Positions 23,139-61,998 of a stretch of DNA of 64,000 nt are shown here, piece by piece. Origin of the DNA: Raillietiella orientalis. Taxonomy: Eukaryota. Both the position numbers and the translations under genes were made by a program. The notes under the pieces are model-generated. The model was not told the origin of the DNA and made no database searches. It saw only the letters and a program-made list of their open reading frames with translations. The stretch lies in NCBI GenBank assembly GCA_036172245.1, contig JAYWIR010000023.1, forward strand, positions 868,001 through 932,000, given 5' to 3'. Positions within the stretch are counted from its first letter, which is position 1. Every line of letters starts with the position of its first letter.

Positions 23139-26059
<2,921 letters not shown>

Positions 26060-39800: not shown

Positions 39801-42122
39801 TCCTCATAAATTAATGTATGCATGTACTAATTACATGCCTTCCCTTGTGGGAATATACCAAAACCATGCGTATCTTCTTAAGCAATTTGCATACATGAAT
39901 GATTTACATGATGGTAATTTCAATCAACTACTAATTTCAAACAAAGATAAGAACACCTCTATGATTATACAAACATATGTTCAATGTGGGGAGACATAAT
40001 GTGATGACCTGAACATTTTCATACAAAGTATTATGGAGCCAAACTCCCAAATGGAAAATTATGAAATGTATGCAAGAAATATAGCTTATCCAATTAAAAA
40101 ACATTTGTATTGTAAGTGTACAAATTCACAGAAGCAAACTCTCTAAGTAGGCATGAAAAATGATGAAACTCCCATGCAGCGTTAACTTTTTTACCAGGGA
40201 ACGGTACCAAATTTGTAATATTGCAAGCAGTGCAGCAATTACGTACTATGACATGATAAATAATATAAAAACCAAATCAATTACGTTATTCACACTGAGC
40301 ATACAATGTACTTAAACTGTAATCAGCTTATGTTACAAATTTAAATTAAGTAACATTACACCTGATGTGCAATTTTATGATAAGCAATAGAACAGAAAGA
40401 ATTACAATTTTTGGCTATAGGAAACTCATTTGGCCAACTGGCCAACTCATTTAAAACAACAATAAACATTAAACAGTACGATATTTTTTGAAAGTAATGA
40501 AAATAAAAAAAAAATTGAATATCTGGGAGAGATTTCCCATTACATGGTGTTTTTCTTGTATTTATCCACAGCTCGCAAAACAAAACACTGATATCAAGAA
40601 TACTGCCAATCAATGTTTTCTGTTATTTTCTACTCAACTCCGATCCTGTCGCATATTTTAAAGTCTCAATACATAACAAGAGCTGCAACTTGAACTTGGA
40701 CCTGTTCACGGAGAAAAGAATATAATGGAGACAAAACAAAGGCTGCAAATAAGAATCAAAGAACTTGAATGCAAACGCATTAATTATAGTGATAAAAGAA
40801 ACACTATGTAAGGTTCAGACCTGCTCAGCATTAAAAGGAAACAATAGGAAATTCCAAAACGTATTGCTAAATCCATGAAGGGGTAAAACACTTGGATATC
40901 CCAAAACATGGACATAATTTACACATTAATGTCAAGAATCACATTAGATTTTCTAACTAATAGGCCAAAAAGAAAAAGCAGTTCATAACAATAGGTCATG
41001 TACATTACAACAGCTGAAACTCAAGTCTTACGACATAGAGGAATGGTTGGGAAAAAAATACCCTAATACGTTTTGTTGAATGATAAGCCTATATGTTATT
41101 TTCAAAGGAACTGTTTGTGAATGATAAGTAATTCCTGAAGGGAAAAGAGTGATCCATCTTTCAAAACAGATTGCAACGTTACAAAGAACCAACATACATA
41201 AAACTTTCTGCAAACATAGAAATAAAACTTACGAAGAAAAATTCTTAAATGTTATGCACACAACATCTTTTAAAATTTATCATCTTTTGCTGAAAAAATA
41301 ATCTAGGTAAGGAATCAAATCACATGACAGAATCACTATTGATTTGCAGTTTCATATCATGCAATACATATGCTGAACTTGAATTCTAACATACACGCTG
41401 ATACAAAAAGTTACTGACAAACTTGACAGTACAGAAGCACACAAAGTTTTACTCATAAACTTTTACATAAATGTTTACTCAGGTTTCTGGGACTGGGTTC
41501 GGTACTCTAAGCAAATATGGTGAATCGCATGTAAAACTTTCAAGAAATCATTTCCTTTTCAGTAGGCATGCTTATTGGTGTGTTAAGATGACTTCATAAA
41601 TGAGCTATGAGCAAGAGGGCACATATTTTTGTGAAAAGTGCAGATCGATAAAGTGCAGGGCATACGAGGAGCTCATCACGATGCGAGTTTCAGAAATTAA
41701 TTCATTTTTTCTGAACTTCTACGTCCGTACATGCAGGAATTTTGTTTGGATTAATTCCGTTCGATTCTGCTAAATACTCAACAGGGCACCGATAGTTTTC
41801 CGCCCAACGAAAGGGAAGACACCGCACCAACATTTACTTTCGTGAAATTTTAAAATTTTCTACGAAGATGGAATACTCAGTGAGTGGAAAATAGCTGATC
41901 ATAGCATATTACGACGGAAGGCAGGTTAAAAAATCCTACTTTTCACGGTAGGGAGCGAGCATCCATTACCTGGTATTTCCGGGATTCATGTAGCTTATCC
42001 CTTTTATTGCGTGCTTCCAATTTACACTGAGCATACCTCGTCAAAACAGAATTACGTCTCTCCTGTATATCTTCCACAGTCTCCAAAACTTTTACATCAT
42101 TCACAACAACGGACTGATCCAT
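30895..42122 (-). CDS. alpha-Spec: Alpha-spectrin, full length, multi-exon
   Basis: Exon 1 41970-42122 ([23 protein letters not shown]), 2.4-kb intron 1, exon 2 39460-39555. Then spectrin repeats, SH3 ([19 protein letters not shown]...[15 protein letters not shown], ~36000-36210), C-terminal EF-hands (FDKDKSG, VDPNRDG), ending [12 protein letters not shown] at 30895. Collinear with arthropod alpha-spectrin. Confidence 0.98.
34882..34923 (-). other. Candidate 42-nt cassette exon of alpha-spectrin ([14 protein letters not shown])
   Basis: Flanked by tctatag| and |gtcagg, phase 0-0, no stop. Leaves a typical 51-nt upstream intron. The peptide resembles the start of the next exon (EHRTEIDAR). 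Confidence 0.65.
40697..40775 (+). mobile_element. Penelope-like element GIY-YIG endonuclease remnant in spectrin intron 1 (duplicated at ~51986-52064)
   Basis: [11 protein letters not shown](E)[12 protein letters not shown] with one frameshift, resembling the Penelope C..YIGETK..L..RIKEH motif. Confidence 0.45.
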
Positions 42123-45100
42123 TCCGACCGCAGAAGCACCTACTGACACACCTCCGACTCCGACCCAGCCTCGCCCCTATACTTGGGCCTCCACAGAAGA
42201 CCGCCGTTGCGCAACCAAAAATAGTTGCAGAATCGAATTTGAAAAGTAGAGAATATTGTAGAGATGCTACAGCATGTAGTGCAGCAAGTGCATTTGAGCC
42301 AGATTCCTTCCTCCCAAAATCGTAAGGATTTGTTCAATGTCTGTCTATTGCAAGAAAACATTACGTAGTTTTCCAAATGATCGTTTGCTTCCTTAAAGAG
42401 TCACTCGGACATTTCTTCCAAAGTTTTAGTTTCATTGTCCAATTTATGCAATGGACATTGGGTATGGTTCTATTTCTAGTTGGTTTTCCTTTATCATCAT
42501 CAGTCTGCAACACGCTATGACGAATTAACAAGAACAAGGTCTTACAGTCACTGAGAAGTGATCAAAAAAAAAGTTCACTGGAAGTTCCCAAAGAGGATTT
42601 CGCTCCTTTGTGAAATTTCATAATTCATTTCGTTGTTTGGATTCGAAAATTCGACGAATGCTACTAAATGATTTCAGTGAACGTAGGTAGGACCTACTTC
42701 GATATTTCTCTCTTGTGCCGCTGCTAAACTGAAACCCACAAGAAGATGCACAGAGCTGTTAAGACAAGTGTACGAATTGTGACAGCACTGTATCGTGATG
42801 TAAGTTGTCTGTAGTGAAGTACCAATATTTTCACATCGAGAAACTGTCAGCTTCTTTGGTGAGCTAATGGACTCTTGAACGCAGAATTTCATTCAAAGAA
42901 CTCACAAGCAGACTTCCGAGTACGAAGAATTAATAGCACACGTGACCTTTGATCTGAACGAAGATTGCTTGCTTTCACAAAGAGACAGATTTTCCAAAAT
43001 GTTTCTGAGACGACATCTAATGACGTTCGTGATGCATTGAAGCTGTTTGTATCGTTATCACTTCAGCTGTCATGCAGTGCTTTGCAAGTGATGACGATAT
43101 TAGGAAGGCAAGGAAAAATTGGGAATGACCCCGGAACACAACTACGGCTGCAAATAATATTTTCGCCAACATTGACACTTGGAAGCAAGCTAAGATTAGC
43201 ATCGTTGATTAGTATTTTATACTATTTTATTTATTTAAATTGCCGACAAATTTTATACTTTTAATGGAAAACTTGTTGTCAGAATCATTAATTTGAATTT
43301 CTACTTTTCTTGCTGTTTATCCATTTACAAGGTCCAGTGATTGTGTTGCTGTAAATCGACCGTAGTAGTTCAATTCCTTGAAGTTGAATCTCGTTTATTT
43401 GCATAACATTACAGATAACATAACATTGCAGATATTTTTTGAATATTAGTTGTGTGTATTGTAGCTTTACCACGGTTTCCCAATTCTTTTCTTTTTCAAT
43501 TTTTAAAAAATCCAACAAATGTCTAAGGCCAACTAACGCCTGCAGGTGTGAATTTTCACACAACTTTTTGTAAAAATTCTTCATGCTGCGAAAAATTTTC
43601 GAATCTACACAGATATAGAACAAATGTGTGAAACCTTCGGTTTATACAACAATTGATGAAATTTAATTGGTTTATTTTTATTTGCTCATTTATATGGCAA
43701 ATGTGAAAGTCAACTGCACAAATTGATGCCTTCTAGGAATGCTCTTTAATTAGTTCTTGAATCGCTCAGAACAGATACTGCGACTGCAGCAAAAAATCAT
43801 TTGAGAATCTTCGAATGTCTTGAGGCTTTTGTGGTTACATATAGTTTGTTCGTTGTGCAGTTAGGTTTCCCATTAAATGATGAACGAACAGAATACATTG
43901 CACGCTTATTTTTAATAATTGTGAAAACATCACACCAGCATCTAAAGAAGCTTACTAATTTGTAGCAAGGACACGCAAGTCTACACACTTGGACTTTCGC
44001 CATACTAATAGCATTTCACGAACCTATGATTTAGACCAATTATTCAAATTCTAATTACTAATTTAAAGTTGATTTGTATCACTAGGTGGGAAAAGAAGCG
44101 GTAACGAATCAGAATCACAAAGATGAGAAAATATTCACAAAAATACGGGAAAATGGGTGCGTGAAGGGTTGTCGAGAATGTTTGTCATGATGGCCTTAAT
44201 ATGCGCAAATCGCTGTTCACAAAGCGGAAAGCATTCTAAACAACATCCAAATTCTAGCAAAATTCTGATACTTGGAGCTAACCGCAAAAGGAAATAGAAA
44301 AGTTATTTGATCAATCGGAAGATGCAAGAAATGAAGAACCTTATAAATGCTATATAGAGCACACGAGATTTGTGCCCACTGGTCAATATGTGAATATTCG
44401 ATGGCGAGAAAAGATGGAGAACAGCAGTTTAAACGGTTTGATGTCCATTTTCTTTATTGTAAGTGTGCATCTCCGACGGAGATAGCATTTCACAAACGTA
44501 TGATTTAAGACAATATCCTGCTGCACAAATTTTCATTTAAAAAACTTTTACTCGATCCCCTTTTTATTGGCAAATTTTCGCATTGTCAATACAGTCGAGT
44601 ACTTGCTTCATCCTTACATAAACATTGCGTCTTGGTAAGAAATCTTCCAAACAGTGTGACCTAGGAAGAAAGAAAAAAAAAACCAACTCTTGCAATTAAC
44701 TTCGAATTCGAATTCTCATAGTTGAAGTGCATTTTTCGATACAAACCACACATGCAGAATCAAATTTGAACAAGATGTATTCATTATATATTCTCTTAGC
44801 TATTCATAAACATATTAGTCATGTGGTTTTGGGTTTTCATGTCACATACTTATGTCACATCACAAGCAAACATGAACCAGTAGATCGTAACCTTCACTCT
44901 GGAGTTCAGTTGTGTTGGCAGTACTTTCGCAGACTCGGAACTGTGTGTTTCTTCGAAATTCCCCATGTAATAGTCCATGAGGGAAGTTACGGGATATCCT
45001 GATGCTAATACTTACACAACATAAACAGGGTGCAATTGAGTCCTGAGAATATTCGACGCTAATTTGAACAGAGTTCAAAGGTAATGGGTTTACTTGAGTG

Positions 45101-48070
45101 ACGTAGAAACGTATCGATTAAATTCGAAAGACTGCATAAGTTTAAAATGATGCAGCAAGTGACTTTCATGTAACTTCGTTTGAGAACTTGTGGCAAACCT
45201 ACATACTTCTCAGGAAGAAGCATATGAAAGCAAAATTTTAGAGAAATGTTGGTGAAATGTGTTCCGAGATCAAGATCTAAAGAAACAAAATTTCATGTGA
45301 AAGAATTTCGGTTGCGTATCGAAATGACTTGGCCGGGGAAAGGCAAATAAAGAGTTTATTTGCAACTTGACAGAAATAAGGCTTTGAAACGTGTATACTG
45401 GTCATTCCTATTCCCCATAATTTACATGTAGTCATATCACATGACTTTTCAACTTTGTATCGTGGGCAGTATCCAAAACCACATAAATCCCAGCATACCT
45501 CAATGGTCCACATTTTAAACTAGTATCGACAAACAAGTCGATCAATTAGCTGTACCAAAGGTTTCTTCATACCTACCTAATTTTCATTTAGAATTTCGTT
45601 GACTGATCTAAGTGTCTCCCTCCCATTTGTGCATGCAGGGTTCAAGTAGTTTTCGCAGAATAGGAGGAGGTAGAGCACAGAACGTAGTCGAAAGAGTGTC
45701 ACAGATTAGATCGAACTTTCCGAGTACACTGTGGTCATCTGTATTGGATACTATCAACAAGTGCTTTGTCTCTTTTGTATGCACATCACATGCGTATACG
45801 TTCTGGTAATTTTAAATTGTGTTTCCACCTGTTTTTCCAGTCAATTTCTCATCATTTTAAAGTCGAGTATTCGAAGCATTCGTATACTTTGAATTCGATA
45901 ACTTTAAGGACATGTAAGAGAAAGTAAAAAAAAAACTTGTAGCAGAAAGTGAAGAAGGATTAACTTGATTTTCCCGAACTGTTTGAAGAGTTCTGCTTGA
46001 ATCAGCAATATTCGAATCACGTGTGCTGTTTATTACAAAACTTTCATCCAAAGCACTGGCATAATGTTTGTGCTTTCACCCCATGGATCTTTCTTTCTTC
46101 AATGTGAATTACTTGATTCAGTCTATGACAGGAAACAAAAGTAATGCACACCATTTTTGAAACTGAATGCATTTAGTGTGTGGAGGATAGGTAGTATTAG
46201 GCGAAAAAAAAAAGCTTATTAAATAATCAGAGCCCGTGCGACAATGTTATTTACGTGGAAATTGATTTCCATGTTACGAAGCATAACTTCCATGTCCAAT
46301 AAAGATTTCAGTGCTTTTAAGATGCTGGGAATCCTGCTTACATGCAGAACCACAGGTCACAGTTTGGGAAAGTTACTATTCCGATGAGAAAATCCCGTAC
46401 CACGGAAAAGTTATGTACGTACTACAAAATGAATCCAAGACATTAAGAAGGTACAAGTGTTTCGATTTCGAATGGTGGAGACCCTTCCAATGAAAGCGTG
46501 GAAAGTATGAAATTGCAGTGAAGACATTTTCGTGCAAATTGTTTATTAGTGTACAATCAGCGTCAAGGATCAGAAAAGCGAAATGATGAACCAAATTCAA
46601 TGAATGAAGCATCTGCGCCGGAGGTAACGTGAAGACCCTTTACGTTTTTAAATCACGTAAAATACACTTAAAGTTAAAACAGGTAGCGCAGTTGGCCATT
46701 AGACTCTATACCATAGTGTTTTGTTTCAAAGTGACGAAGGATTTGATTGGTAAACATGGATTTCTTAGAAGCAAAAAGAGACGCTACTTTTTCCAAATGG
46801 GCACTTCTGCCATCGCAGGAAATTCCACGCACTGCGTAGTTCCCACATCGTCCCGGAAATCGCATTCTGCTGCGTGCTGAGGTCGAGAAAAATTTACCTT
46901 GCCTGCAATAGTGGCAACTGTTTCGTGGAGGATCAGTCTTCAGAAACAGAAAAAAGGAAAGTAACCAGAAACACTTTTACAATTCTTCCTGGATTGAAAG
47001 CAAGCTTGAAACTTGTACGATACATGTGTACTCCAAGGGAAAAGTAATATGCTGTTCACACTAGCTTCGAATGTCATTTTACTCGTTTCACTAGCATGGC
47101 TCCTTCTAGCATTACGTGAGATTTGAAGAATACTTTATTGGCTCATGAAACAATACTGAAGACACATTACCTTGAAAACTGATGGAATTAGGAATGCAGA
47201 GTCACTAGTCGGTTGACAAATATTTCAGTTTTCCTGGTTCACTACATTAATAGAATGCTAGCGGTTCATTCGAGACATTTTGCTTGTAGTGTGCTATTAA
47301 AATGTTTACACAAAATGCCTCACACTCAAACAAGAAAGCAAATCCTTGCCTGATTCGCAGTCGAAACTTGTGAATGCTTGTAAATTTCGAATGAGGTTTT
47401 TCTCAATACTCATTAGAGGTATATAAATTGAAAAGCAATAAATTATAAACAATTTAAAAATGGTAGACTGTTTATAGAGGAATACACTGCTGTATTTGGA
47501 AAAAACACACTTCATCCGTTAGCTTGAGGTGCTCTTAATAAAATTCTAGTTGAAAGCTGCTATGAAAGTAAAATTGTTCCGAAAATAACTTGCGAACAGT
47601 ATTAATTATTTTTAAATCTGGAATGAAGCAATAGTTGAGTAGTTGTTGCACATTTTCGCAATCCCTCCCAAATGATACACCTTGTATAAGTACATAGGTT
47701 ATATACTGAATCAATCTACCATGCATTTATTTTTATAGACTATATTCCAAAAACTCATTTCTATTACAAATACATTAATGTACACGCGTACTCAACTGTG
47801 TAAGATTTACTTAATTACAGAACATCTGCAAGGTATACTTTACGCAAGTGCAGAACTACTTTTTCATTTATTTCCACTATTTTATTTTCATATCCATTGT
47901 TCGCACTGTAAAATTGAAAGGCTGGGAACAAATCCTCATCTCATGTAACTAACCGAATTGAAAACTGGAATATTCTGTTTACTAAGAATGAGTTAACAAA
48001 TTTCCATGTTGTGTTAAAGAAAAGCAATAATGAAATGAGTATTTTTATTTGCCCAGATGTGTGCATATCT

Positions 48071-48093
48071 ACACACACACACACACACACACA
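48071..48093. repeat. (AC)11 microsatellite
   Basis: Read directly. Confidence 0.9.
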
Positions 48094-48208
48094 ATCACGC
48101 ACACAAACAAACAAATAATTATTAGAATCGATTAAGCGCAACAAACTCATACCTAATACTCTTATGTGTCTTCCAAAATAAAGCTTTCAATCAATTCCTA
48201 AACTGTTT

Positions 48209-51200
48209 TCACCTGCTTTCTGATATATCTATTCCAGAGATAGGTCCCCCTGATAAGATAAAAATATTCACAATTTACACAGAGATCACATTAATTGAGA
48301 ATTACCTACGTTCATGGCACCTGGCTGGGGGTATGGCTGAGGTGGAGGTGGTACAGGTTCAGAAGGAGGTACTGGTGATGGCTGACTTCCAGGTACAGGG
48401 ATATTTTGACCTGCATTAGCAGGGTTTGTTGAGGCAGCCTGGCAAATACATCATGTTCCAAGTGATTAAAGGAAGCAGCTTCAAAAAAAATTCTTTTTTG
48501 CATACTTTTTCAGCTTTCATTTGCCGTTCTAAAATTGCAGCTTCCTTGTGCATGCCCATGGAACGATAATATTCTAACCACTGAGCACTATAATCAGGGT
48601 GACCTGTAGTTGGTGTCGCTGCCACAGGTACAGGGGCAGCAGAACGTGGCACAGGCTCATCATAATAATAGGAATAGGAATTAGCAAATACTAGAAGGCA
48701 CACAGATGGCACTTCATCTGTGCAAGGCCGATTTGCAAGCAGTTCCTGCTCAAAATTCTGATGCTTTTGGAGTTTTCCATTCAAATTAGTGGGATCCTAC
48801 ATCAGCTATATTAAGTGTAAAATTTAATTCTCAAGCTTACCATGTAATTTTCATCTGTCACTACTTTAAGCTTCTCATTGATCCATCCCTTAGTTTCATC
48901 ACAATCTCTCTCAAACTGCTGCAAGCGATAAGACTCATCTAACATAAAACGTCGATTAGTTGATTTGTCTAAAAGTGCTAAGCGTCGCTCTAGAAGCTAA
49001 AAAAGAGTTGCTTTTTCTGAAATATACATCCAATGATCCTGACCAACTGCCTGCGATGAGCCACATCATCAAGTGCATAACGCTGCTCATTAATAAGCTT
49101 GGCAGGTAAAATCTCCAAAACTTTGATCTTTTCTTCTTGTGCAGCTAAAGATTTCTCAAAATCCTCGTGCTTTTTTATAAGGGCTTCCACAGAATCTAAA
49201 GAATCGCCAAGATCGTCACTGATCAGGAACGCTTCTTGCTTGGCGATAATTGCATCAGCTTGTTCAGTATCGCGATAAAATAATTGCGGATCCAAACGCT
49301 GTTCATTAAGAATTCCTCTATCTTCGCACAGTTTCAATAAGGAGTTCTTCGCGGATCTTAAGGTGTCAAGCTTTTCTTTCACATCCTCAGAAGCAAAATG
49401 TCCTGCATCAAGCAACTTTTGGCCAGATGCCATTGTATTCTGAAAATCATCGCTATGGGCATCGATTTCTCCTTTGTGTTCCTGATGACATTCTAACAGA
49501 GCTTCACCTCCTGAAACTTCTTTGGCTAACTCATCAGCCTGTATAATCGTTTTCATGTCTGCAATCCAAGACATCAGATCACGATAATCAACCAAAAAAC
49601 AGTGCAGCAAGTAGGACTCATCTAAGCGCCTTTTTCGATCCTGAAGTCGATAATTAATTGGTACACAATCTTAATCGACAAATTGTACCTGAGCTTTTCC
49701 CTTTAGATTTTGCCAGTTGTTTACTATAACTTTATGTTTTGTTTTGATTTGATCACTGTTCTCAGGATTTCCAGAAAACAGTGAGTCAGCGTCTTCACCC
49801 AACTTGCACACTTTGTACTCCAGAGCTGCTAAATCTCTCTCCATTCCCTCATGTTTTCTCTGTAACAAATTGGTACATGACAGGAACTACTTTTCATCTT
49901 TTGTTATAGACCTGTAACGCTTGCACACTAGCAAGGTCTTTGCCTAAGTCATCTGAAGACAAAACTGAATCTTTCTCCAAAATCGAGGCAAATGCCTCAT
50001 CAGCCTCTCGATTGAGTCTTCGAATTTCAACGCCCCGAAATAAACGATCCTGTCTATGAATAGCCACCTGTCCCAAATGCTCCCAAGCTTCCAACATTTC
50101 CTGCAATTACTATAATCTTGTCATGCTACCCACAACAACTGACCTCCTTTCTTTTGATTATCTGGTCTTTTTCAGGATGATGTTCTTCAATTAATCGCTT
50201 TGCAAATTCATATACTTCCAAAACCCGATATTCCTGAGACGCCATATCTCCATGAAGTTCCTTACACTTTCTTTCCAAAACGTCGAAATCCTCAAGACCA
50301 TTAGCAAATTCATCTCCACTGACGAAAGTTACCTACATATTACACATTTGTGATTTATTGACCACTGATTCATTTGTACACTAATAACTTGATTACCTTA
50401 TCACTTATCCAGAACATGACTTCATCACACTGTCTCAAGAATTGCACTAACACTAATGCCTGTTGCAATTTCATACCTTTTTCTGCTAGACGAGAAAGAA
50501 GCAGTTCCCATAAATCATGCAATTCTTCTATAAAAGAGTAAGTATATCATAATCTCCTCAATACCTATAAACAACTTGCCTAATCTTTTTTTGATAGCAG
50601 CGGATTCAAAATGATTCTGATTAATCATTTCAGAACCAGCATTATCTAGTACCACAATTGCATTGCTGTGAGCTGATACTTCAGCCCCAAATGCTTGATG
50701 TTTCAGAATTTCGGCCTGAAATGGGCTTGTAGATAAATTTGTGACACAGCAGTGAATAACCTGTAAATTGGATGCATCCTTGTAGCTTTCATCAGATGCA
50801 GTTTGCAATTTTTCATAGATCCACGACTGCGGTTCATCACAATCTCGTTTGAAGTACTAAATATTTGCAAAGTAAGGGTCAGTTACACATAACAAAATAC
50901 TCATCACTTTTAAAACAAAAACAGTTTAATTTGTATATATTCGTTTGGAGGAAGAGAATCTCCGGCTTTTTTTAACACGACATTTTTCGATGGTTATTAC
51001 GAAGCTCACAACAAGTTATATTAAAAAATACGCAGTTGACCAATAAAAGCTATAACAAATAAGAAAAACTATGCACTTGTGTTTTCAATGATAAATCCGT
51101 TTCCTCATAAATTAATGTATGCATGTACTAATTACATGCCTTCCCTTGTGGGAATATACCAAAACCATGCGTATCTTCTTAAGCAATTTGCATACATGAA

Positions 51201-53412
51201 TGATTTACATGATGGTAATTTCAATCAACTACTAATTTCAAACAAAGATAAGAACACCTCTATGATTATACAAACATATGTTCAATGTGGGGAGACATAA
51301 TGTGATGACCTGAACATTTTCATACAAAGTATTATGGAGCCAAACTCCCAAATGGAAAATTATGAAATGTATGCAAGAAATATAGCTTATCCAATTAAAA
51401 AACATTTGTATTGTAAGTGTACAAATTCACAGAAGCAAACTCTCTAAGTAGGCATGAAAAATGATGAAACTCCCATGCAGCGTTAACTTTTTTACCAGGG
51501 AACGGTACCAAATTTGTAATATTGCAAGCAGTGCAGCAATTACGTACTATGACATGATAAATAATATAAAAACGAAATCAATTACGTTATTCACACTGAG
51601 CACTTCAATGTACTTAAACTGTAATCAACCTTAGTACAAATTTAAATTAAGTAACATTACACCTGATGTGCAATTTTATGATAGCAATGAAACAGAAAGA
51701 ATTGCATTTTTGGCATGTGAAACTCATTTGACCAACTCATTTAAAACAACAATAAACATTAAACAGTACAAATATTTTTGAAAGTAATGAAAATAAAAAA
51801 AAATTGAATATCTGGGAGAGATTTCCCATTACATGGTGTTTTTCTTGTATTTATCCACAGCTCGCAAAACAAAACACTGATATCAAGAATACTGCCAATC
51901 AATGTTTTCTGTTATTTTCTACTCAACTCCGATCCTGTCGCATATTTTAAAGTCTCAATACATAACAAGAGCTGCAACTTGAACTTGGACCTGTTCACGG
52001 AGAAAAGAATATAATGGAGACAAAACAAAGGCTGCAAATAAGAATCAAAGAACTTGAATGCAAACGCATTAATTATAGTGATAAAAGAAACACTATGTAA
52101 GGTTCAGACCTGCTCAGCATTAAAAGGAAACAATAGGAAATTCCAAAACGTATTGCTAAATCCATGAAGGGGTAAAACACTTGGATATCCCAAAACATGG
52201 ACATAATTTACACATTAATGTCAAGAATCACATTGAATTTTCTAACTAATAGAGCCCAAAAAGAAAAAGCAGTTCATAACAATAGGTCATGTACATTACA
52301 ACAGCTGAAACTCAAGTCTTACGACATAGAGGAATGGTTGGAAAAAAAATACCCTAATACATTTTGTTGAATGATAAGCCTATATGTTTTTTTCAAGGAA
52401 CTTTATTTGGCCATAATGGAGACTTCCTTAAAAACTGATGTGATCCATCTTTCAAAACAGATTGCAACATTACAAAGAACCAACATACATAAAACTTTCT
52501 GCAAACATAGAAATAAAACTTACGAAGAAAAATTCTTAAATGTTATGCACACAACATCTTTTAAAATTTATCATCTTTTGCACCTGAAGCTTCTTGAAAT
52601 AATCTAGGTAAGGAATCAAATCACATGACAGAATCACTATTGATTTGCAGTTTCATATCATGCAATACATATGCTGAACTTGAATTCTAACATACACGCT
52701 GATACAAAAATTACTGACAACTTGACTACAGAAGCACACAAAGTTTTACTCATAAACTTTTACATAAATGTTTACTCATGATTTCTGGGACTGGGTTCAG
52801 TACTCTAAGCAAATATGGTGAATCGCATGTAAAACTTTTGAAATCATTTCCTTTTCAGTAGGCATGCTTATTGGTGTGTTAAGATGACTTCATAAATGAG
52901 CTATGAGCAAGAGAATACATATTTTTGTGAAAAGTGCAGATCGATAAAGTGCAGGGCATACGAGGATCATCACGATGCGAGTTTCAGAAATTATTCATTT
53001 TTTCTGAACTTCTACGTCCGTACATGCAGGATTGTTTGGATTAATTCCGTTCGATTCTGCTAAATACTCAACAGGGCACCGATAGTTTTCCGCCCAACGA
53101 AAGGGAAGACACCGCACCAACATTTACTTTCGTGAAATTTTAAAATTTTCTACGAAGATGGAATACTCAGTGAGTGGAAAATAGCTGATCATAGCATATT
53201 ACGACGGAAGGCAGGTTAAAAAATCCTACTTTTCACGGTAGGGAGCGAGCATCCATTACCTGGTATTTCCGGGATTCATGTAGCTTATCCCTTTTATTGC
53301 GTGCTTCCAATTTACACTGAGCATACCTCGTCAAAACAGAATTACGTCTCTCCTGTATATCTTCCACAGTCTCCAAAACTTTTACATCATTCACAACAAC
53401 GGACTGATCCAT
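48209..53412 (-). CDS. Chimeric gene: N-terminal ~635 aa of alpha-spectrin fused in frame to a FUBP/PSI-like C-terminus (DUF1897-type Tyr-rich motif + Pro-rich tail)
   Basis: Spectrin-derived exons from 53260-53412 down to the fused exon 48506-48796 keep their splice sites and frame. The fused exon reads ...NRPCTDEVPSVCLLVFANSYSYYY...GHPDYSAQWLEYYRSMGMHKEAAILERQMKAEK. Next come exon ~48310-48438 (AASTNPANAGQ...PPPPQPYPQPGAMN) and a last exon starting 48249 (stop at 48229 or 48209 depending on donor). Expression is not shown by sequence. Confidence 0.75.
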
Positions 53413-54634
53413 TCCGACCGCAGAAGCACCTACTGACACACCTCCGACTCCGACCCAGCCTCGCCCCTATACTTGGGCCTCCACAGAAGACCGCCGTTGC
53501 GCAACCAAAAATAGTTGCAGAATCGAATTTGAAAAGTAGAATATTGTAGAATGCTACAGCATGTAGTGCAGCAGTATTTAGGCCAGATTCCCTCCTCTAA
53601 AAATCATTAAGGATTTGTTCAATGTCTGTCTATTGCAAGAAAACGTGCCATCATTCCAAATGATCGTTTGCTTCCTTAAAAGAGTCACTCGGACATTTCT
53701 TCCAAAGTTTAGTTTCGTGTCCGAATTTATGCAATGGACATTGGGTATGGTTCTATTTCTAGTTGGTTTCCTTTATCATCATCAGTCTGCAACACGCTGT
53801 GACGAATTAACAAGAACAAAGTTGCTTACAGTCACTGAGAAGTGATCAAAAAAAAAAAAAAAGTTCACTGGAAGTTCCCAAGAGGATTTCGCTCGCTTTG
53901 TGAAATTTCATAATTCATTTCGTTGTTTGGATTCGAAAATTCGACGAATGCTACTAAATGATTTCAGTGAACGTAGGTAGGACCTACTTCGATATTTCTC
54001 TCTTGTGCCGCTGCTAAACTGAAACCCACAAGAAGATGCACAGAGCTGTTAAGACAAGTGTACGAATTGTGACAGCACTGTATCGTGATGTAAGTTGTCT
54101 GTAGTGAAGTACCAATATTTTCACATCGAGAAACTGTCAGCTTCTTTGGTGAGCTAATGGACTCTTGAACGCAGAATTTCATTCAAAGAACTCACAAGCA
54201 GACTTCCGAGTACGAAGAATTAATAGCACACGTGACCTTTGATCTGAACGAAGATTGCTTGCTTTCACAAAGAGACAGATTTTCCAAAATGTTTCTGAGA
54301 CGACATCTAATGACGTTCGTGATGCATTGAAGCTGTTTGTATCGTTATCACTTCAGCTGTCATGCAGTGCTTTGCAAGTGATGACGATATTAGGAAGGCA
54401 AGGAAAAATTGGGAATGACCCCGGAACACAACTACGGCTGCAAATAATATTTTCGCCAACATTGACACTTGGAAGCAAGCTAAGATTAGCATCGTTGATT
54501 AGTATTTTATGCTATTTTATTTATTTAAATTGCCGACAAATTTTATACTTTTAATGGAAAACTTGTTGTCAGAATCATTAATTTGAATTTCTACTTTTCT
54601 TGCTGTTTATCCATTTACCAGGTCCAGTGATTGT
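48702..54634. repeat. Segmental tandem duplication of ~37400-43344 (offset ~11.3 kb); resumes at 63982 after the retrotransposon nest
   Basis: Base-by-base match of exons, introns and upstream DNA. Several track ORFs are identical or nearly so (39778/51079, 41943/53233, 42674/53964). Confidence 0.97.
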
Positions 54635-55359
54635 TGCCACCCGGTCACGCCGAGGCGTTTATTAGAAATTCTCTACATTATGGTACGAGGCCCCACTACG
54701 GCCAACACAACAGGACCTGCCGGGCTGCCGGTACGCAGACCGGCGCTACTCCCCTCGGCAGCGGAAGGGGATGGGGAGAAAAACAAAAAGAAAAATAAAA
54801 TATAAAAACTAAAAGATTTGGGAGGGCGGGGAAGGGATCACGGTCCACTGCGAGGAGGGTCTATCCTTTCCAGGATGCCCTCGAGGTCCGTCCGTATAAT
54901 TCCCATGTGGGGCCATCTGGTCACAATCCGCAGGTGGCGGATTGCAAGTTCGACGGCATCGCTGTCGTGGCTAGGTCTTCTGACGTCGCTCCAACACGTC
55001 ACAATCCCTCGGACGCAGCAGGGCTGCGGCAGGCCGAAGGGCGTCACGCACAAAGAGGCGCGTCAGAACGTCTCTAGGGTTGATCGTGGGTGCTCCTAGG
55101 GCCGTTGCGAAACGCAACCACAGGGGTCGGAGGGCAGCACAATCTACAAGGAGGTGGGAGGAGGGTTTCCCGCTCCCCGCACCTGACGCAGGCGGGATTC
55201 ACTCGACCCCTGGTCCAGTGGTGACGGCGTGCGTTGCAAGGTAGGCCCCAATGCAACAACAGAAGCCCCGACTCCTGCCACTTCAGGGGGAGGATCCTCG
55301 AGCCTATGAATACCGGGGGCCACTTCAGGTCATCCGTAGGGATGCCAAGCAGCTCGCCC

Positions 55360-56760
55360 AATCCCAGCCTACTGTTTAAGGTAGGCCGGGTATTCGATGA
55401 TCGTGTGGCGCGCTCCTTTGAGCAGGAGCTGCACCGTTTGAACGTCAATAAGGAGGATCTGTTGGGTCTCTCCATCCGCAGCGGGGGGCAGCATTTCGAG
55501 CTGACCTGCAAAGAAGCAGGGTTGGCGCAAAGACTGCTGCGAACCCCCGTTAGGATCGAAGGCCGCCAGATCTTCCCTGTCCCGGTGGACAACTCAATAG
55601 TTGTTCACCTCCGCGGAATCACCCTACGGATGTCCCCGAGTGCCGTCAGGGCTGAATTGAGCAAATTCGGCACCGTGCACGCACTGTGGGCGAAGCCCAA
55701 CAGACTCCGTACTTATGACGGACTTCTAAGCGGGCATGCTGCTGCGCGCATCACGGTTGCCAAGGACGTGGGGATTCCCCACAAACTGGTTGTCGACGGA
55801 GATACTGTCGACATCTGGTATCTGGGTAAACCCAAATACTGCGCGTTCTGTGATGCTACGGGACACGTGAAGAAACGTTGCCCCAACATCACCTGCCGCA
55901 AGTGCGAGGCAACCGGGCACACGGAAGAAATGTGCCCGAAAAAGACTCCGCGCGCGCTGGCTGCTGCCACGAGTGGCACGAACGCGAATAAAAAGAAGCC
56001 TGGCAAGCCCTGGCCAACGTCCGAAAAACAGGTTGACCCGGAGCCAGCCGAAAAGGCCGTGCCGAACACCCCGTCTGCGGAAACGCAGGCAACCGGGGCG
56101 GAAGGAGAAGAGCCGGACTGGCAAAAGGTCAGCTACAAAAAAGGGAACTTAAAAAAGAAGAATAAAGTCCCTGCAAAACCCGCGAAACCAGCGAAAAAGC
56201 AGGGACTGAAAAAACGCACGATCGCACTGGAGCGCCTTACAGACGCCGAAGTGACATGCGAACAGGCCGTTGCCGTGTGCAACAACGCCGACAGCCCCGT
56301 CGCTGTGCGAACAGCAGCCGAGGGCTGCGGCGAGGGGGAAAGCCGCGTTGGCGCGGACTTTGCGAAAGCCGCCGTCGAGCTCGCCGCCGCCGTTCCGCAA
56401 TCACCCGCAAAGGGCGAGAAGAAGGCGGCTCGACATCCAGCCGAAAGGAGGGGGACCGGGACCTCGGACTCGGACCCGGAGGCCGGACACGCACCATCCG
56501 TGTCTGCAACCCCATGGAAGACCGGACGGAAAATCCGTAACCTGAGGAGGATCGTTTCCTCCGAGGAGGGGGAATCTTCCGAAAACGAGGGTGCGGCGAG
56601 CGTGGGAGGAATGGACACGAGTCCTGAACTCCCACGCCCGGTCGAGACACAGCCGATGCAAGCGGAGGGCGTCGTCGAGGCGCCCCCCACTGCAGACGAG
56701 CAAGAAAGCATCCCGCCCGATGGGGAGGCGGGAGACGCTGCATCACGTTCCCAGCAGTAA
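55360..56760 (+). CDS. Element B ORF1, gag-like nucleic-acid-binding protein, 5'-truncated
   Basis: RRM-like segment (VHLRGITLRMSPSAVRAELSKFGTV), two CX2CX4HX4C knuckles (CAFCDATGHVKKRC, CRKCEATGHTEEMC), basic/low-complexity tail. Confidence 0.88.
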   Translation, partial: NPSLLFKVGRVFDDRVARSFEQELHRLNVNKEDLLGLSIRSGGQHFELTCKEAGLAQRLLRTPVRIEGRQIFPVPVDNSIVVHLRGITLRMSPSAVRAELSKFGTVHALWAKPNRLRTYDGLLSGHAAARITVAKDVGIPHKLVVDGDTVDIWYLGKPKYCAFCDATGHVKKRCPNITCRKCEATGHTEEMCPKKTPRALAAATSGTNANKKKPGKPWPTSEKQVDPEPAEKAVPNTPSAETQATGAEGEEPDWQKVSYKKGNLKKKNKVPAKPAKPAKKQGLKKRTIALERLTDAEVTCEQAVAVCNNADSPVAVRTAAEGCGEGESRVGADFAKAAVELAAAVPQSPAKGEKKAARHPAERRGTGTSDSDPEAGHAPSVSATPWKTGRKIRNLRRIVSSEEGESSENEGAASVGGMDTSPELPRPVETQPMQAEGVVEAPPTADEQESIPPDGEAGDAASRSQQ

Positions 56761-59700
56761 TGCCGGGACTCGCCACCTGCCGTCAAATCCGCATCGCCAG
56801 TTGGAACGTCAACGGGCTTTGCGATGACGGCAGGAGACGAGACATAGCTGCCACCTTACAAGCCTTCGACCTTGTGCTGCTGCAGGAGATCCACGAGATC
56901 TCCGCAGAACATGCGCGGGAGATCGAGAGGATAGCAGGTGGTCAGCTAATGTGGCGATGCGGCCACTGCCGTACGCGCGGGGTCGCTTTCCTTCTGAAGC
57001 CTGCCTTACAACGTTCGGTGAGGAAAGTTCGTTTCAATGAGACAGGTCGGGTCGGGCAAATCACCTTCAGGTGGTCCGGCTCGATCGATCTCGTCGTCAC
57101 GAACGTGTACGCGCCGAGCGGCGGTCACGCGCGCGTGGCACGGACGGCATGCTTCCGTGCGTTCCAGCGCGACTGGCTGTCGGAGGCAGGCGCGCGCACG
57201 GCGCACCTGATAGCCGGCGATTTTAATATTCGCCTGCTATCAGGTGCGGCGAGGACAGAGGCCACCCCGGTTAACGAGATGTGCGCCACGGTGCACGCAT
57301 CCAACTTGTTGGCCGGGGACGCCGAGATGGAGCGGAGCGTGGACCACGTCTTCCTCGACGATCACCTGCGCTGTCGCGTGGGCAGGAGAGGTAAGATACA
57401 GTCCGCTGTCTCCGATCATTCCCTTGTGGAATTCGTCATTCGCCCGTGCGACAGGGGGCCCCCCTCGCAGGCGTGGCGTTTACCGGGGGACTGGCTGACG
57501 AAGCCAGGCGCAGGGGAACACCTCCTCGCGTTCTTGCGAGGTTTCAGCCTGCAGACGCTCGACGACTGGGACGATTTGAAAGTCTCGGTGCGAGAGTTCT
57601 GCCAACAGTTCCCCATGGACCGTCTCCCGAAAGGATTTGGAGAAGGTGTTCGGAACGATAGGGCTTACCTGCAGGCCCGTCGTTACACCCGAACACCCGA
57701 CGTCCGAAGACTGGCGGAATTTAAAGCTGGGGCCGAGAGGCAGGCCTGGCAATCCGGGTCGCCCAACCTGCTGGACGACGAAGGCCAGGAGCACTCGGCC
57801 CCGGCAGAGGTTTGTCACCCGGATATGCCGGGGCATTTATTATTCTAATTTGTTACAAAAATTAGATAATAAAGTCTTTAAAAAATGTTTTCTGTGGGGA
57901 ACACTGGGTTCTTCCACGCTACAATGTACTCGCTACCCGGTCTTTAGACCGGCGAGGTTCTCTCCCCAGGCGCTGGGGAAGGGGAAAAGGAAAACAAAAA
58001 ACAAAAAAGGAAATAACGGGGAGGGAAAGAGTTCTATGGGGAGGTGGGGGGTAGGGAAGGGATCACTGGGCGCCTGGCTCGGTCCTCCGCATCCTGTTTA
58101 GGATGCAGTCAAGTTCTGCTTTCACTGTGAAAGGTAGACGCCACCTTGTCGCCGTCTCCAAAGAGATCGTCGTCCAGTGGATGGCGTCCCTGCATCTTGG
58201 GCCTCTTCTTCTTGCGTGCCACCTTTGCACAATGCCGCGCACGCAGCAGAGGACTGCTAGAGACGCAGCGGGGCGCAGGCCGTCACGCAGAAAGAGGCGA
58301 CGGTAAATGTCCTTAGGGTCGCCTACTGGAAGATGGAGGATTGGGGCGATTCGACTCCAGAGTCCATCCAGGGCGACACACTCGAGGGTAAGATGCGGGA
58401 AGGTGAGCAGTGAGGCAGAGGTGAGCAGCCTAGTGCGCGGTTATTATTCCTCCCTGTACACCAGGGTGCCTCCGGACCGGGATTTTTCCCGGCTTTTGCT
58501 TCCGGATGGCGCCCCGGCGATCGGGGAGGAAGAGAGAGCACGCCTGGATGAGCCTTTCACGATGGGTGAAATCATCACCGCAATCGGGAAGCTCAAAAGG
58601 CGGAAGTCACCGGGGGAGGACGGCCTGCCCGCGGAGTTTTTTCAATGCTTCGCGGCGGAGCTTGTCCCCCTGGTGCAGCGGTTAACGCTGCTGATCCGGG
58701 AGGCAGGCGACGTTCCCGCCTCCTTCCGATCGGCACGGATGCGTCTTCTCCTGAAGGGAGGAGACTTACGGAACCTCAGCAATTGGCGTCCGATCACCGT
58801 TTCAAACGCGGACGCCAAGCTGCTTGCGAAGCTATGGTTGGAACGAATGGGGCGGATGGCGGAAAGCTTCATCAGCCCGGAACAGACATACGCTGTTCCC
58901 GGGCGAAGCATGGACGCCAACCTGCTCTTCGCGAACACCTGGTTCGAGTTCCAGCGATGTAGAGTAGATGAAAAGAATAAGGTCGGCACCCCGAGTTGCG
59001 GGACGTCCGCTGGTGGTTCGCGAGATGGTCGGGAGCGCGAGGGGGCCCTCGCGGTCGCAGTCGATCTGCGAAAAGCATTTGACTGCGTCGACCAAGAGCT
59101 CCTGCTGGAGCTAATGGAACGCCTGGGCTTCCCGGCCTCCTTATTAGCCTTTCTGCGCTCTTGCTGGCGCGACGCGCTGACCAATATTTCTTTCAGAGGA
59201 AGAAACGTGTTCGGTGTGCCGGTGCGCCGCGGGATACGGCAAGGTGACAGCTTGAGCCCCTTGCTTTTCAGCACCTACTTCGAGCTGGTGCTGAGGGCAT
59301 ACAGGGAGACTCTTGGTCGCCTGCCGCGCGTGTGCCCAGGTACACCGGCCGTGGCGTCTTATGCGGACGATCTTTTGCTGCTGCTCCCCATGTCCACCCC
59401 GGCGTCGGCGGTCGAAAACTTTTTCGAGCTGCTGCGTCGCGGGACAGGGCTGGAGGGGAACAGAGCGAAGTCGTCCGTGGTTGCAGCTGGTTCATCGCGG
59501 GCAGGGCAGCCGGATTGGTCTAGCTTGGGGATCCCCACGGTACCGTACTTTAAGTACCTTGGTGTGCCGTTGGGAAACTATTCCCCTGCGGAAGCGTGGT
59601 CTAGCTGCCTCCAAAAGGCCGAGAGAGCGATCGGCCCGTTCCTGGATGGCAAGTTTTTCTTGCCGGAACGGGCCGTGATGTGGAACACGTTTGTGGCCCC

Positions 59701-60932
59701 CCTTTTTCGCCCCTTGCTTTTTGTTTGCCCTCCACCCTGCGGTGTCAGAAAACGGACGAAGGACCTCCTCAGAATCGCCCTTTGGGGTAGAGGTAGGCCC
59801 CGAGTCCGTTTGAAGGACTTATGTGCCCCTGGTCGCGATGGAGGCCTCGGCCTCCTCACGCTGGAGCGGCTGGAACTGCAGCTGCAGTTCAGGACTAGGT
59901 CTAGTAGCGAAGCTATGGAGCACCAGCTGGTGCGAGCCTGCACGACGCCTTGTTCAGCGAGCTAGCAGCTGCGCGGGACTGTCTACCTTCCTGGCGCGCC
60001 GCAAACGCCGGTACCTGTTCCACTGCGGACTGGCACTTCGGCGAGTGGCGAAGCTGACCAGAACGAACACCTGGATCTCCTGCCGGCCCGCGAACGGTAC
60101 TTCCTGGTTGCAGGAAAGCCTTCGCACGTGGGCCCAGATCGAGGAAGCGAGCCCGGAGTTGCGGCAGCGAATGCTGCTCTCCTATCACAAGAGCCGCTCG
60201 CTGCAGGACATCATTGTGCAGCCCACCTTGAGCGCATGGGCTGAGAGGACCTCCCTTGCCACGGCTCTGTTCCACCTTAGGGAGCACCTGGGCAGTAGCC
60301 ATCCGGCGAAATGGGAAGTCCGGTGTAGTATCTCTGGAAGAGAGAGAGAGCAAGGTGGTTGGACCACGGGCCAGTTCACAGACGCTGCGACCCCAAGTGC
60401 TCCACCAAAGGGACTATTGCGCTGGGGCGAGCTGCTGAGCAACCCCATGGATGTACTCGAGTGGCCCCCGGTGCTGAAGACTACCCGGGCCCTCCACCTG
60501 AAGTGGCAGGAGTCGGCGTTCCTGGTGTTGCACTGGGGACTCCCCAGCAACGCCCGCCGTTCGCACTGGACGAGGGGGGCTGTGGACCCAAATTGTGTCA
60601 GGTGCGGGGAACGGGAAACCCTCCTGCACCTGCTTCTTGACTGTGTTGCCCTCCGGCCTCTGTGGTTGCGTTTCGCAACGGCCCTAGGAGCACCCACGAT
60701 CAACCCTAGAGACGTTCTGAAGCGCCTCTTTGTGCGTGATGCCCTTCGGCCTGCCGCAGCCCTTGCAGCCCTCTGCTGCCTACGAGGGATTGTAACGGCC
60801 TGGAGCACCGCCACTGGTGGACTGAACGACAGGGACATCTGCTCCGCCCTGCGTTTCCTAAGGACGGAAGCCAGATGGTCCCATTTGGGGCATATGCGGA
60901 CCGAACTTGTCAGCATCCTGGAATGGATGTAG
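56760..60932 (+). pseudogene. Element B ORF2 (APE endonuclease - RT - zinc finger), disrupted by insertion C and one frameshift near 59896
   Basis: APE motifs SWNVNG, LQE, NVYAP, GDFN, VDH, SDH; RT motifs KSPGEDG, NWRPIT, DLRKAFD, GIRQGDSLSP, YADD, KYLGVP; CVRCGERETLLHLLLDC. Removing C plus one TSD restores ...PAEVSSLVRGYY in frame. Confidence 0.92.
57812..58413 (-). mobile_element. Element C: ~600-bp 3' fragment of a related retrotransposon nested in ORF2 of B
   Basis: TSD GGCAGAGGT at 57803-57811 and 58414-58422. Minus strand encodes HLTLECVALDGLW...RRLFLRDGLRPAA... and ends AATAAATGCCCCGG-CATAT-CCGGGTG-ACAA. Confidence 0.9.
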
Positions 60933-61110
60933 AGGACGACTCCAGCGGAATGTGATCCCTTCCCCAACTCCTCCCTGCTTTTGTACATAGTGTTTTCTTT
61001 TTGTTTTTATTTGTCCTTTTCCCCCCCGCTGCCGAGTCGAACTCGCCAGCCTGCGTGCTTGCTACTCGGCAATTTCAAACTCTTTACTAGAACATTTTTT
61101 AGGACGCTGT

Positions 61111-61998
61111 TTATCACCCGGGTGCGCCGGGGCGTTTATTAAAAACTATCCGGGAACAGAGTTCCTGGACAAAGGGGAAGACAAGATACGAAGGAAGTGG
61201 GATCCCCAACACGCAGGTTGGTATGGCGAAAAGATGGAACGGGAGGGAGGGGACCACAAATAGACTACTATAAAAAATAAAAATAAAAATATGGTGGGCA
61301 GGGGACAGGGGTCTTTGGTTCGGCCGTTCCTTCCTTTCATAACCGGCGATGGATGCCGGCGATCTCTCTCCTCACGCTCTCTGGTAGGTGGACCCACTCG
61401 GCAGCCGACGACATGCTTGCGCTGGCTAATCCGGTGGGCTGACGAAGGATGGCCAGCTTCTCCAACTCTCAGTGGGCCTTGTCGATGGCGCGGGTGCAAC
61501 ACGGTTGCAACGACAGCACCCAAAGACAGGCCGCCTGGCGTGAAGAAGCGGCGCATCAAGTCCCTCGCGGTGTCCCCCTGGTGCAGGAGAGCTGATGTAG
61601 TCCCCTCCGCTAAAGTTCTAGAAGGGCACCGCAGTCCAGGAGCAGGTGCGGGAGCGTTTCCACTTCCCCGCACCGCTTACAGTTTGGGGAGACAACTCCC
61701 CCGGAAACACGGTTCGTCCGCTGGTTGGAGTGAAAACCCCAATGCACCAGCATGATGACGTCCTGCTTCCACGAAAGGGGGAACACAGAAGTGTTCAAAC
61801 AGGAGGGAGGGACCACAAGTTCTTCGGGGGCACACTCAAGTGTTCACTCCGCCGAAGGAGTCCCTTCGAGATGTGGCGAGGCGTGGCGGCGTCTGCCAGC
61901 TCGCAAGCCGACAATAGGTCGTGTTGCTCCTGCAATGTTGCAGGCGACCTCCCATCTCTCCAGTTCGCAGCTGTCATCTCTTGCCCTATCTCTCTTGC
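61111..61998 (-). mobile_element. Element D: ~890-bp 3' fragment of a related retrotransposon nested in the 3' UTR of B
   Basis: TSD TTTTAGGACGCTGT at 61097-61110 and 61999-62012. Encodes LVHWGFHSNQR...CKRCGEVETLPHLLLDC and ends AATAAACGCCCCGG-CGCAC-CCGGGTG-ATAA. Confidence 0.9.

Follow-up and report, generated by a model that had tools for sequence, protein, structure and literature searches.

An alpha-spectrin/FUBP-type fusion at a duplication junction in Raillietiella orientalis: a chimeric gene whose frame was probably kept open by selection

Introduction

That new genes can arise as chimeras at the junctions of duplications is well documented, and three described systems come close to the one examined here. 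As told in the passages of PMC3395120 that concern it, Sdic of Drosophila melanogaster (AnnX-Cdic) arose through duplication of two adjacent genes, encodes a truncated version of a cytoskeletal parent protein with a new end, and had a dead retroelement inserted just upstream early on. The Drosophila yakuba and D. simulans chimeras of Rogers et al. (PMC5460883, from the parts of that paper dealing with their formation) came about through duplications that ignored gene boundaries and joined one gene's 5' part to the 3' part of the gene next to it, with 76 chimeras found among 1116 tandem duplications. Pieces of alpha-spectrin itself have been copied in the exon-shuffling hotspots of Drosophila affinis, where they are transcribed within composite genes (bioRxiv 10.1101/2025.10.28.685065, in the section on this gene). 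Here we describe a locus that shares the traits named for the first two systems and, with the third, the copying of alpha-spectrin pieces. It lies in a stretch of 64,000 nucleotides (nt) from Raillietiella orientalis (assembly GCA_036172245.1, contig JAYWIR010000023.1, positions 868,001 to 932,000), which was analysed whole and is called the window below. On the minus strand of this window, the first ten exons of a duplicated alpha-spectrin gene run in frame into the last exons of a gene of the FUBP/KSRP/PSI type, and we hold with moderate confidence that this is a real chimeric gene, born when a duplication cut two same-strand neighbours and kept open since then by selection.

Results

A duplicated alpha-spectrin block continues in frame into FUBP-type exons

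Self-BLAST of the window revealed one long direct repeat, in which 37399-43344 matches 48702-54634 at 96.08% identity over 5975 columns. Both repeat copies lie on the minus strand, and the chimera is the upstream one, which takes in 1.2 kb of DNA upstream of the gene, all of exons 1-9 and the beginning of exon 10. The other copy belongs to a complete parent gene 11.3 kb downstream of the chimeric copy, which was traced from 42122 to about 30898 by tblastn with a mite alpha-spectrin and which carries Pfam matches to Spectrin repeats and to EFhand_Ca_insen (the calcium-insensitive EF-hand) at its 3' end. This parent is intact, and it is the conserved copy of the two. The DNA between the repeat copies (43345..48701) has no second copy within the window by self-BLAST, and none of the 17 open reading frames (ORFs) scanned there matched a Pfam family above cut-off. 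The blocks are as follows.

48702..54634, minus strand: duplicate of the alpha-spectrin upstream region, exons 1-9 and the start of exon 10 (self-BLAST and alignment).
37399..43344, minus strand: parent block, the equivalent part of the complete alpha-spectrin (self-BLAST, exons mapped).
30898..42122, minus strand: complete parent alpha-spectrin, from the ATG to the C-terminal EF-hand region (tblastn and Pfam).
43345..48701, minus strand: single-copy spacer with the FUBP-type last exons, their 3' untranslated region (UTR) and the intergenic DNA before the parent spectrin (self-BLAST).

Exon borders were read from the sequence and then checked by script, which gave for the upstream copy a 12-exon minus-strand model of 2283 nt (760 codons and the terminal stop) that no internal stop interrupts. 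Past the breakpoint, the frame traverses a pyrimidine-rich intron tail together with its AG (48692-48691) and enters the foreign exon in that exon's native frame. The Pfam Spectrin matches lie in exons 5-9, upstream of the join, and the FUBP_C match lies downstream of it, such that one continuous frame holds sequence from two parents. Splice signals are intact at all 11 donors, of which 10 are GT and one is a GC found in the parent too, and at all 11 AG acceptors. An earlier note on this DNA had proposed that the duplicated spectrin promoter and exons 1-10 break inside exon 10 and that the frame passes through a foreign intron tail into FUBP-type sequence without a stop or frameshift; the repeat boundary and the intact 12-exon frame agree with both points, and the new fused protein that it put at about 750 residues comes to 760. 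The model and its landmarks are listed here in the order of transcription.

53260..53412, minus strand: exon 1, with the ATG at 53412 and 51 codons, encoding the N-terminal partial repeat; 0 of 153 nt differ from the parent.
50761..50856, minus strand: exon 2, with 2 differences from the parent.
50580..50715, minus strand: exon 3, ending at the GC donor common to the parent.
50397..50527, minus strand: exon 4, identical to the parent.
50144..50332, minus strand: exon 5, the most diverged, with 21 of 189 nt differing; Pfam Spectrin at 31.2 bits versus 49.8 in the parent.
49912..50100, minus strand: exon 6, with 18 of 189 nt differing; Pfam Spectrin at 31.2 bits versus 45.3 in the parent.
49689..49859, minus strand: exon 7, with 15 of 171 nt differing; Pfam Spectrin at 35.3 bits versus 39.3 in the parent.
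49044..49640, minus strand: exon 8, 199 codons and about two spectrin repeats; Spectrin at 127.9 bits versus 135.8 in the parent.
48841..48996, minus strand: exon 9, with a Pfam Spectrin match.
48506..48796, minus strand: fused exon 10 (291 nt), running from spectrin sequence across the breakpoint and the tail of the foreign intron into the FUBP-type exon.
48703..48712, minus strand: breakpoint interval, where similarity to parent exon 10 ends.
48512..48616, minus strand: FUBP_C coding sequence, residues 61-95 of the exon 10 translation (Pfam PF09005).
48306..48438, minus strand: exon 11, encoding a tail that is rich in proline and homologous to those of FUBP proteins.
48209..48249, minus strand: exon 12 with the stop codon, 13 codons, placed by splice signals only.
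48044..48049, minus strand: AATAAA signal, about 160 nt past the stop.

Two small observations belong beside this list. In both copies (50579-50578 and 39278-39277, minus strand), intron 3 of alpha-spectrin is a GC-AG intron whose donor reads GCAAGT, and the FUBP-type 3' UTR carries an (AC)n microsatellite at 48071-48113, between the stop codon and the AATAAA.

The identity of the FUBP-type part is well defined. Exon 10 scores 70.2 bits (E 9.7e-20) with the Pfam family FUBP_C (PF09005, once called DUF1897), whose cut-off is 20.1 bits, and the match covers positions 2-36 of the 36 in the profile, which bears out the motif that the earlier note had recognized from the sequence. The C-terminal 124 residues of the model align with all 14 FUBP relatives compared, best with a last FUBP_C repeat and the tail that follows it (47% identity over 102 residues), and this alignment supports both the exon 10-11 splice and the frame of exon 11. 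A phmmer search with exon 10 against 1.84 billion representatives returned 363 proteins at E up to 0.001, and among the best 150 of these the best match fell nearly always in the second half of the exon. Nine proteins drawn from those 150 were scanned with Pfam and comprised seven full-length KH-domain proteins, one FUBP_C fragment and one spectrin fragment; none of the nine combined Spectrin with FUBP_C. All seven full-length relatives possessed 2-3 FUBP_C motifs and 3-4 KH_1 stretches. Neither the chimera exons nor the 33 ORFs that were scanned from 43 to 64 kb gave a KH match.

The predicted product thus begins with the N-terminal partial repeat of alpha-spectrin and continues with roughly five and a half spectrin repeats. 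A linker rich in proline leads from these to the single FUBP_C motif, after which comes the proline-rich tail. Its spectrin part stops at about residue 636, inside exon 10, and it lacks the SH3 domain, the dimer-nucleation repeats and the EF-hands, in line with what had been noted earlier for the last two, as well as all KH domains. Because the core promoter and 5' UTR region sit in a 509-nt run identical to the parent, transcription of the chimera is plausible.

The copy has changed freely at the residue level and kept its frame

Across exons 1-10, 92 of 1909 nt differ between the copy and its parent, and 85 of 3994 aligned nt differ in the introns and upstream DNA. The exon changes alter 66 residues. 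At 48 of these sites the majority residue among 52 outgroup alpha-spectrins is the parent's, and at none is it the copy's; asking only which of the two residues is commoner in the outgroups favours the parent at 61 of the 66 sites and the copy at 4 (a first look with a single outgroup had split the differing residues into 43, 2 and 21). Because the outgroup majority sides with the parent, all of the amino-acid change is assigned to the copy.

After these 92 exon substitutions the copy holds no stop codon. When the observed changes were scattered on the parent coding sequence in a neutral simulation of 5000 trials, a mean of 4.1-4.5 stops resulted and 0.8-1.2% of trials had none, so that the probability of zero stops is 0.008-0.012. 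The insertions and deletions (indels) tell the same story, with 32 indel events that all lie in non-coding DNA and none in exons. The resulting substitution to indel ratio is 92:0 in exons versus 85:32 in non-coding DNA (Fisher p 1.2e-9), and collapsing clusters of changes into single events leaves indels in 0 of 41 exon events versus 29 of 46 non-coding events (p 2.5e-11). Each of the 22 splice dinucleotides has been preserved as well. The join itself would be in frame by chance about 1 time in 3, and an open frame after 92 substitutions is not easily due to chance. We conclude that the frame and splice sites were probably protected by selection while the constraint on alpha-spectrin-type residues was lost. 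If selection did keep them, the chimera has been translated and useful.

There is also a hint of faster-than-neutral protein change, or positive selection, although it depends on the model. Non-synonymous changes make up 73 of the 92, against an expected share of 0.668 (binomial p 0.0057), and 66 of 80 when counted by codon (p 0.0013), where the expected share assumes that synonymous changes fell on both copies and that non-synonymous ones were accepted by the copy alone.

The duplication was most likely tandem and was followed by LINE insertions

The region upstream of the chimera is interrupted by a nest of long interspersed nuclear element (LINE) copies, whose arrival can be dated relative to the duplication.

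54635..63981, no strand assigned: nest of LINE copies inside the duplicate, 1.2 kb upstream of the chimera ATG, with zf-CCHC, Exo_endo_phos, RVT_1 and zf-RVT (Pfam).
54620..54634, no strand assigned: left 15-nt target-site duplication.
63982..63996, no strand assigned: right 15-nt target-site duplication; the next 4 nt equal parent 43345-43348.

The nest is 9.3 kb long, three-deep and GC-rich, and a perfect 15-nt target-site duplication brackets the whole of it. Because the parent carries this 15-mer only once, at 43330-43344, and thus preserves the empty site, the nest was inserted later than the duplication. Similarity to the parent's upstream DNA resumes past the nest for 15 + 4 nt, which indicates that the duplication does not end at 54634 and extends beyond the window. 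No second copy of the spacer was found inside the nest. The gene is therefore young, as the earlier note had called it, only in a relative sense, since a three-deep LINE nest postdates the duplication and the two copies have diverged in a mosaic fashion.

Read from the sequence, the origin of the locus is most likely a tandem duplication, this being the simplest model. The ancestral order would have been a FUBP/PSI-type gene, 4.7 kb of intergenic DNA and alpha-spectrin, all on the same strand. A duplication, most likely tandem and with a unit of 11.3 kb, would have had one end in a FUBP intron, 12-21 nt short of an exon, and the other within spectrin exon 10, and would have set the spectrin promoter and exons 1-10 of the upstream copy against the last three FUBP exons of the downstream copy. 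With the frame preserved, the junction would be read as a single 291-nt exon. This would have left intact genes on both sides of the fusion at the junction, one of FUBP type upstream and the spectrin gene downstream, after which a LINE would have landed 1.2 kb upstream of the ATG and been invaded by further LINEs.

Two other routes to the fusion were considered. Copying by LINE 3' transduction is rejected, as the nest, which carries a target-site duplication of its own, is a simple insertion and no poly(A) is present at the 48703-48712 junction. Insertion of a spectrin fragment alone into a FUBP intron is disfavoured by the return of similarity to parent upstream DNA after the nest, and such an insertion would also put nine strong wrong-phase exons into the FUBP transcript.

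Divergence between the copies is a mosaic

Divergence along the repeat (48706-54634 versus 37403-43344) is uneven, with identical runs adjoining patches that differ at 11 of 23 or at 25 of 52 columns. The identical runs of 701, 615, 509 and 431 nt all lie in the upstream DNA, exon 1 and intron 1, and are longer than expected by chance (P 0.0018). Multi-nucleotide changes form patches in both exons and introns. Divergence is higher in exons than in non-coding DNA, and this holds at fourfold sites too (9 of 178 versus 85 of 3994, p 0.018). Replacements number 7 in the N-terminal 172 residues versus 59 in the other 464 (p 0.0011), and synonymous change is low in that N-terminal part as well. Three causes could account for the mosaic: gene conversion of the 5' half, selection that held copy-specific patches against conversion, or an unseen third copy.

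This pattern matters for exon 1, whose lack of change the earlier note had tied to the tetramerisation site. The identity is real, but as proof of selection on the tetramerisation helix it does not serve, because exon 1 lies within a 509-nt identical run that includes non-coding DNA and is better explained by gene conversion.

Alternative explanations

Several observations weigh against a gene kept by selection, and most of them fit a different account, in which the duplication is real and the fusion is its dead by-product, drifting neutrally, with a frame still open through youth, luck and patching by gene conversion. The ratio of non-synonymous to synonymous differences per site (pN/pS) is 0.96, which indicates no constraint at the residue level. 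Replaced sites are no different from unreplaced ones in their outgroup conservation (0.700 vs 0.681, p 0.48), and the replacements are more radical than simulated ones (mean BLOSUM62 -0.59 vs -0.26). Residues invariant in the 52 outgroups have been replaced, for example at positions 60, 85, 87, 184, 187, 195, 198, 264 and 274, and further on at, for example, 400, 470, 473, 533, 542 and 600. Three tryptophans are lost, and new prolines appear at 60, 473 and 534 and, beside the breakpoint, at 636. The spectrin signature is eroding, with Pfam Spectrin scores 4 to 19 bits lower per exon than in the parent. The last spectrin repeat is cut in helix B and should be unable to fold as a three-helix bundle, and the single FUBP_C of the chimera contrasts with the 2-3 of its relatives. 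The unchanged state of exons 1 and 4 may reflect gene conversion, which the long identical runs show to have been acting, in place of constraint, and the LINE nest so close upstream may silence the promoter. As for the origin, the tandem model rests on 15 + 4 nt, with the FUBP parent and the second spacer copy falling outside the window. Chimeric genes are, moreover, usually lost (PMC5460883, in its passages on their fate).

What this account handles poorly is the difference between exons and non-coding DNA. Gene conversion erases substitutions and indels together and so cannot produce the indel contrast, whether counted by change or by event, nor can it account for the absent stops; the full set of intact splice dinucleotides also stands against it. 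We regard a dead by-product as a possibility to be taken seriously, although a doubtful one, and an ordinary spectrin-like rod in the chimera is doubtful on the same residue-level evidence. A chimeric gene with a protected frame remains our preferred reading.

A further account would have the diverged exon patches copied from an unseen third spectrin paralogue or retrocopy, in which case the pattern would record the donor's history and not local selection. The clustering of divergence in 50-170 nt patches with multi-nucleotide changes would suit such a donor, as would the excess of exon over non-coding divergence even at fourfold sites. Yet a 12-mer search of the window found nothing that could have served the diverged patches as a donor or as a local inverted template, and a sequence look-up in an index of other DNA windows found no look-alike of exons 5-7 or of the FUBP part. 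The introns hold similar patches, which a spliced donor could not have supplied, and the event-level contrast between exons and short introns comes from few events, counted by eye in the alignment. We therefore consider a third copy improbable.

Finally, an assembly artefact (uncollapsed haplotypes or a false join through the repeat) might be suspected from two copies at 96% identity 11 kb apart and from a window that ends inside the structure, but it is very improbable and false duplication from haplotypes is rejected, given that the 66 residue differences, many at sites invariant in 52 outgroups, do not suit an allele of an essential gene, that the join is single-copy on one side and not at a repeat edge, that the window contains no N, and that the copy's own LINE insertion, with a clean 15-nt target-site duplication set against the parent's empty site, marks a real and separately evolving locus.

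Other features of the window

The window has the character of arthropod-type nuclear DNA with short GT-AG introns, consistent with its best protein matches, and an Rfam scan of it matched no family. Two further genes on the plus strand are represented by exons, namely a urocanase gene at about 11455-13457 (Pfam Urocanase_N and Urocanase) and a gene for a GOST-type seven-transmembrane protein at about 24897-25844 (Pfam GOST_TM). At 4813-5210, 400 nt match their own reverse complement at 90.8% by self-BLAST, as in a palindromic or hairpin-like element.

Discussion

What such a protein could do follows from its two ends. Alpha-spectrin's N-terminal tail and the tail at beta-spectrin's C-terminus co-fold into the three-helix bundle of tetramerisation (PMC9082959, in the portion describing this site). 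With this head present and the dimer-nucleation end absent, the chimera could occupy beta-spectrin ends without extending the network, and through its unchanged head it may, as a soluble protein, compete for those ends or cap them. Presenting a protein-binding motif of the PSI type may be an additional or an alternative role. In Drosophila PSI the AB motif is required for U1-70K binding, and in silkworm PSI the loss of either of two motifs nearly abolished Masc binding (both from the passages on these motifs in PMC12167360); a single FUBP_C motif, as predicted here, may or may not suffice for partner binding. The fullest version of this idea, a working and positively selected protein whose head docks on free beta-spectrin C-termini, capping spectrin dimers or loosening the membrane skeleton, while displaying a PSI-type AB motif, is speculative and in our judgement unlikely.

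Were that version true, the chimera would be a natural regulator linking the cortical skeleton to a splicing-factor partner, and its rod would be free to diverge because only the two ends matter. The pairing of a spectrin tetramerisation head, which has a precisely known binding job, with a short splicing-regulator motif makes beta-spectrin capping directly testable. If the locus is silent at the RNA level, it is an ordinary decaying duplicate. The evolutionary regime is unusual, with residues evolving as if unconstrained and with stops, frameshifts and splice-site changes excluded. Cases that bring together both parents, an exact breakpoint, a later dated insertion and frame-preservation statistics are, besides, useful study material.

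Comparison with known systems

Database searches placed the two halves of the chimera with their separate families. A protein search with exon 10 returned 6 proteins, all spectrin-like and none a fusion orthologue, and one with exon 8 returned 299 matches, among the best 120 of which the top identity was 69% and none carried PF09005; the protein collections contain no close relative of the source species and give weak evidence on the age of the fusion. In the passages located in the literature on alpha-spectrin chimeric genes formed by duplication, such a fusion was not found described. Canonical alpha-spectrin shares with the chimera the N-terminal partial repeat and spectrin repeats 1-5, whereas the chimera ends its spectrin part at about residue 636 and goes without the SH3 domain, later repeats and EF-hands (the outgroups carry SH3 and EF-hand by Pfam). 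With FUBP, KSRP and PSI it has in common the C-terminal FUBP_C (the AB motif of PSI) and the proline-rich tail, whereas it lacks KH domains and carries a single motif where the relatives have 2-3. Judged from these features, the chimera fails as a working alpha-spectrin, with no SH3 domain or EF-hands and with family-invariant residues lost, and it fails as a FUBP family member, having no KH domains.

The comparison is closer with genes of mixed descent. Relative to the hotspots of D. affinis, where fragments are scattered in multi-fragment arrays according to the section cited above, we see one local duplication in which the promoter and ten exons keep their original order. The chimeras of Rogers et al. 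are segregating, nearly undiverged and backed by RNA sequencing in the parts of that paper considered here, whereas the present one has about 5% exon divergence and a later LINE nest and is known from sequence alone. In Sdic, again as told in the passages on it (PMC3395120), both parents persist intact; here the alpha-spectrin parent is intact in the window and the FUBP-type parent is expected beyond the LINE nest. The coding region of Sdic derives from Cdic alone, with AnnX giving only promoter elements, whereas both parents contribute coding sequence to our chimera and the promoter is spectrin's own; Sdic is also tandemly amplified and testis-expressed, whereas the chimera is seen as one copy. 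With these differences, the origin from neighbouring genes that the earlier note had likened to Sdic holds up, in that adjacent genes were duplicated and a retroelement sits just upstream, and the locus fits a known kind, the chimeric gene born by duplication, of which Sdic and jingwei are examples.

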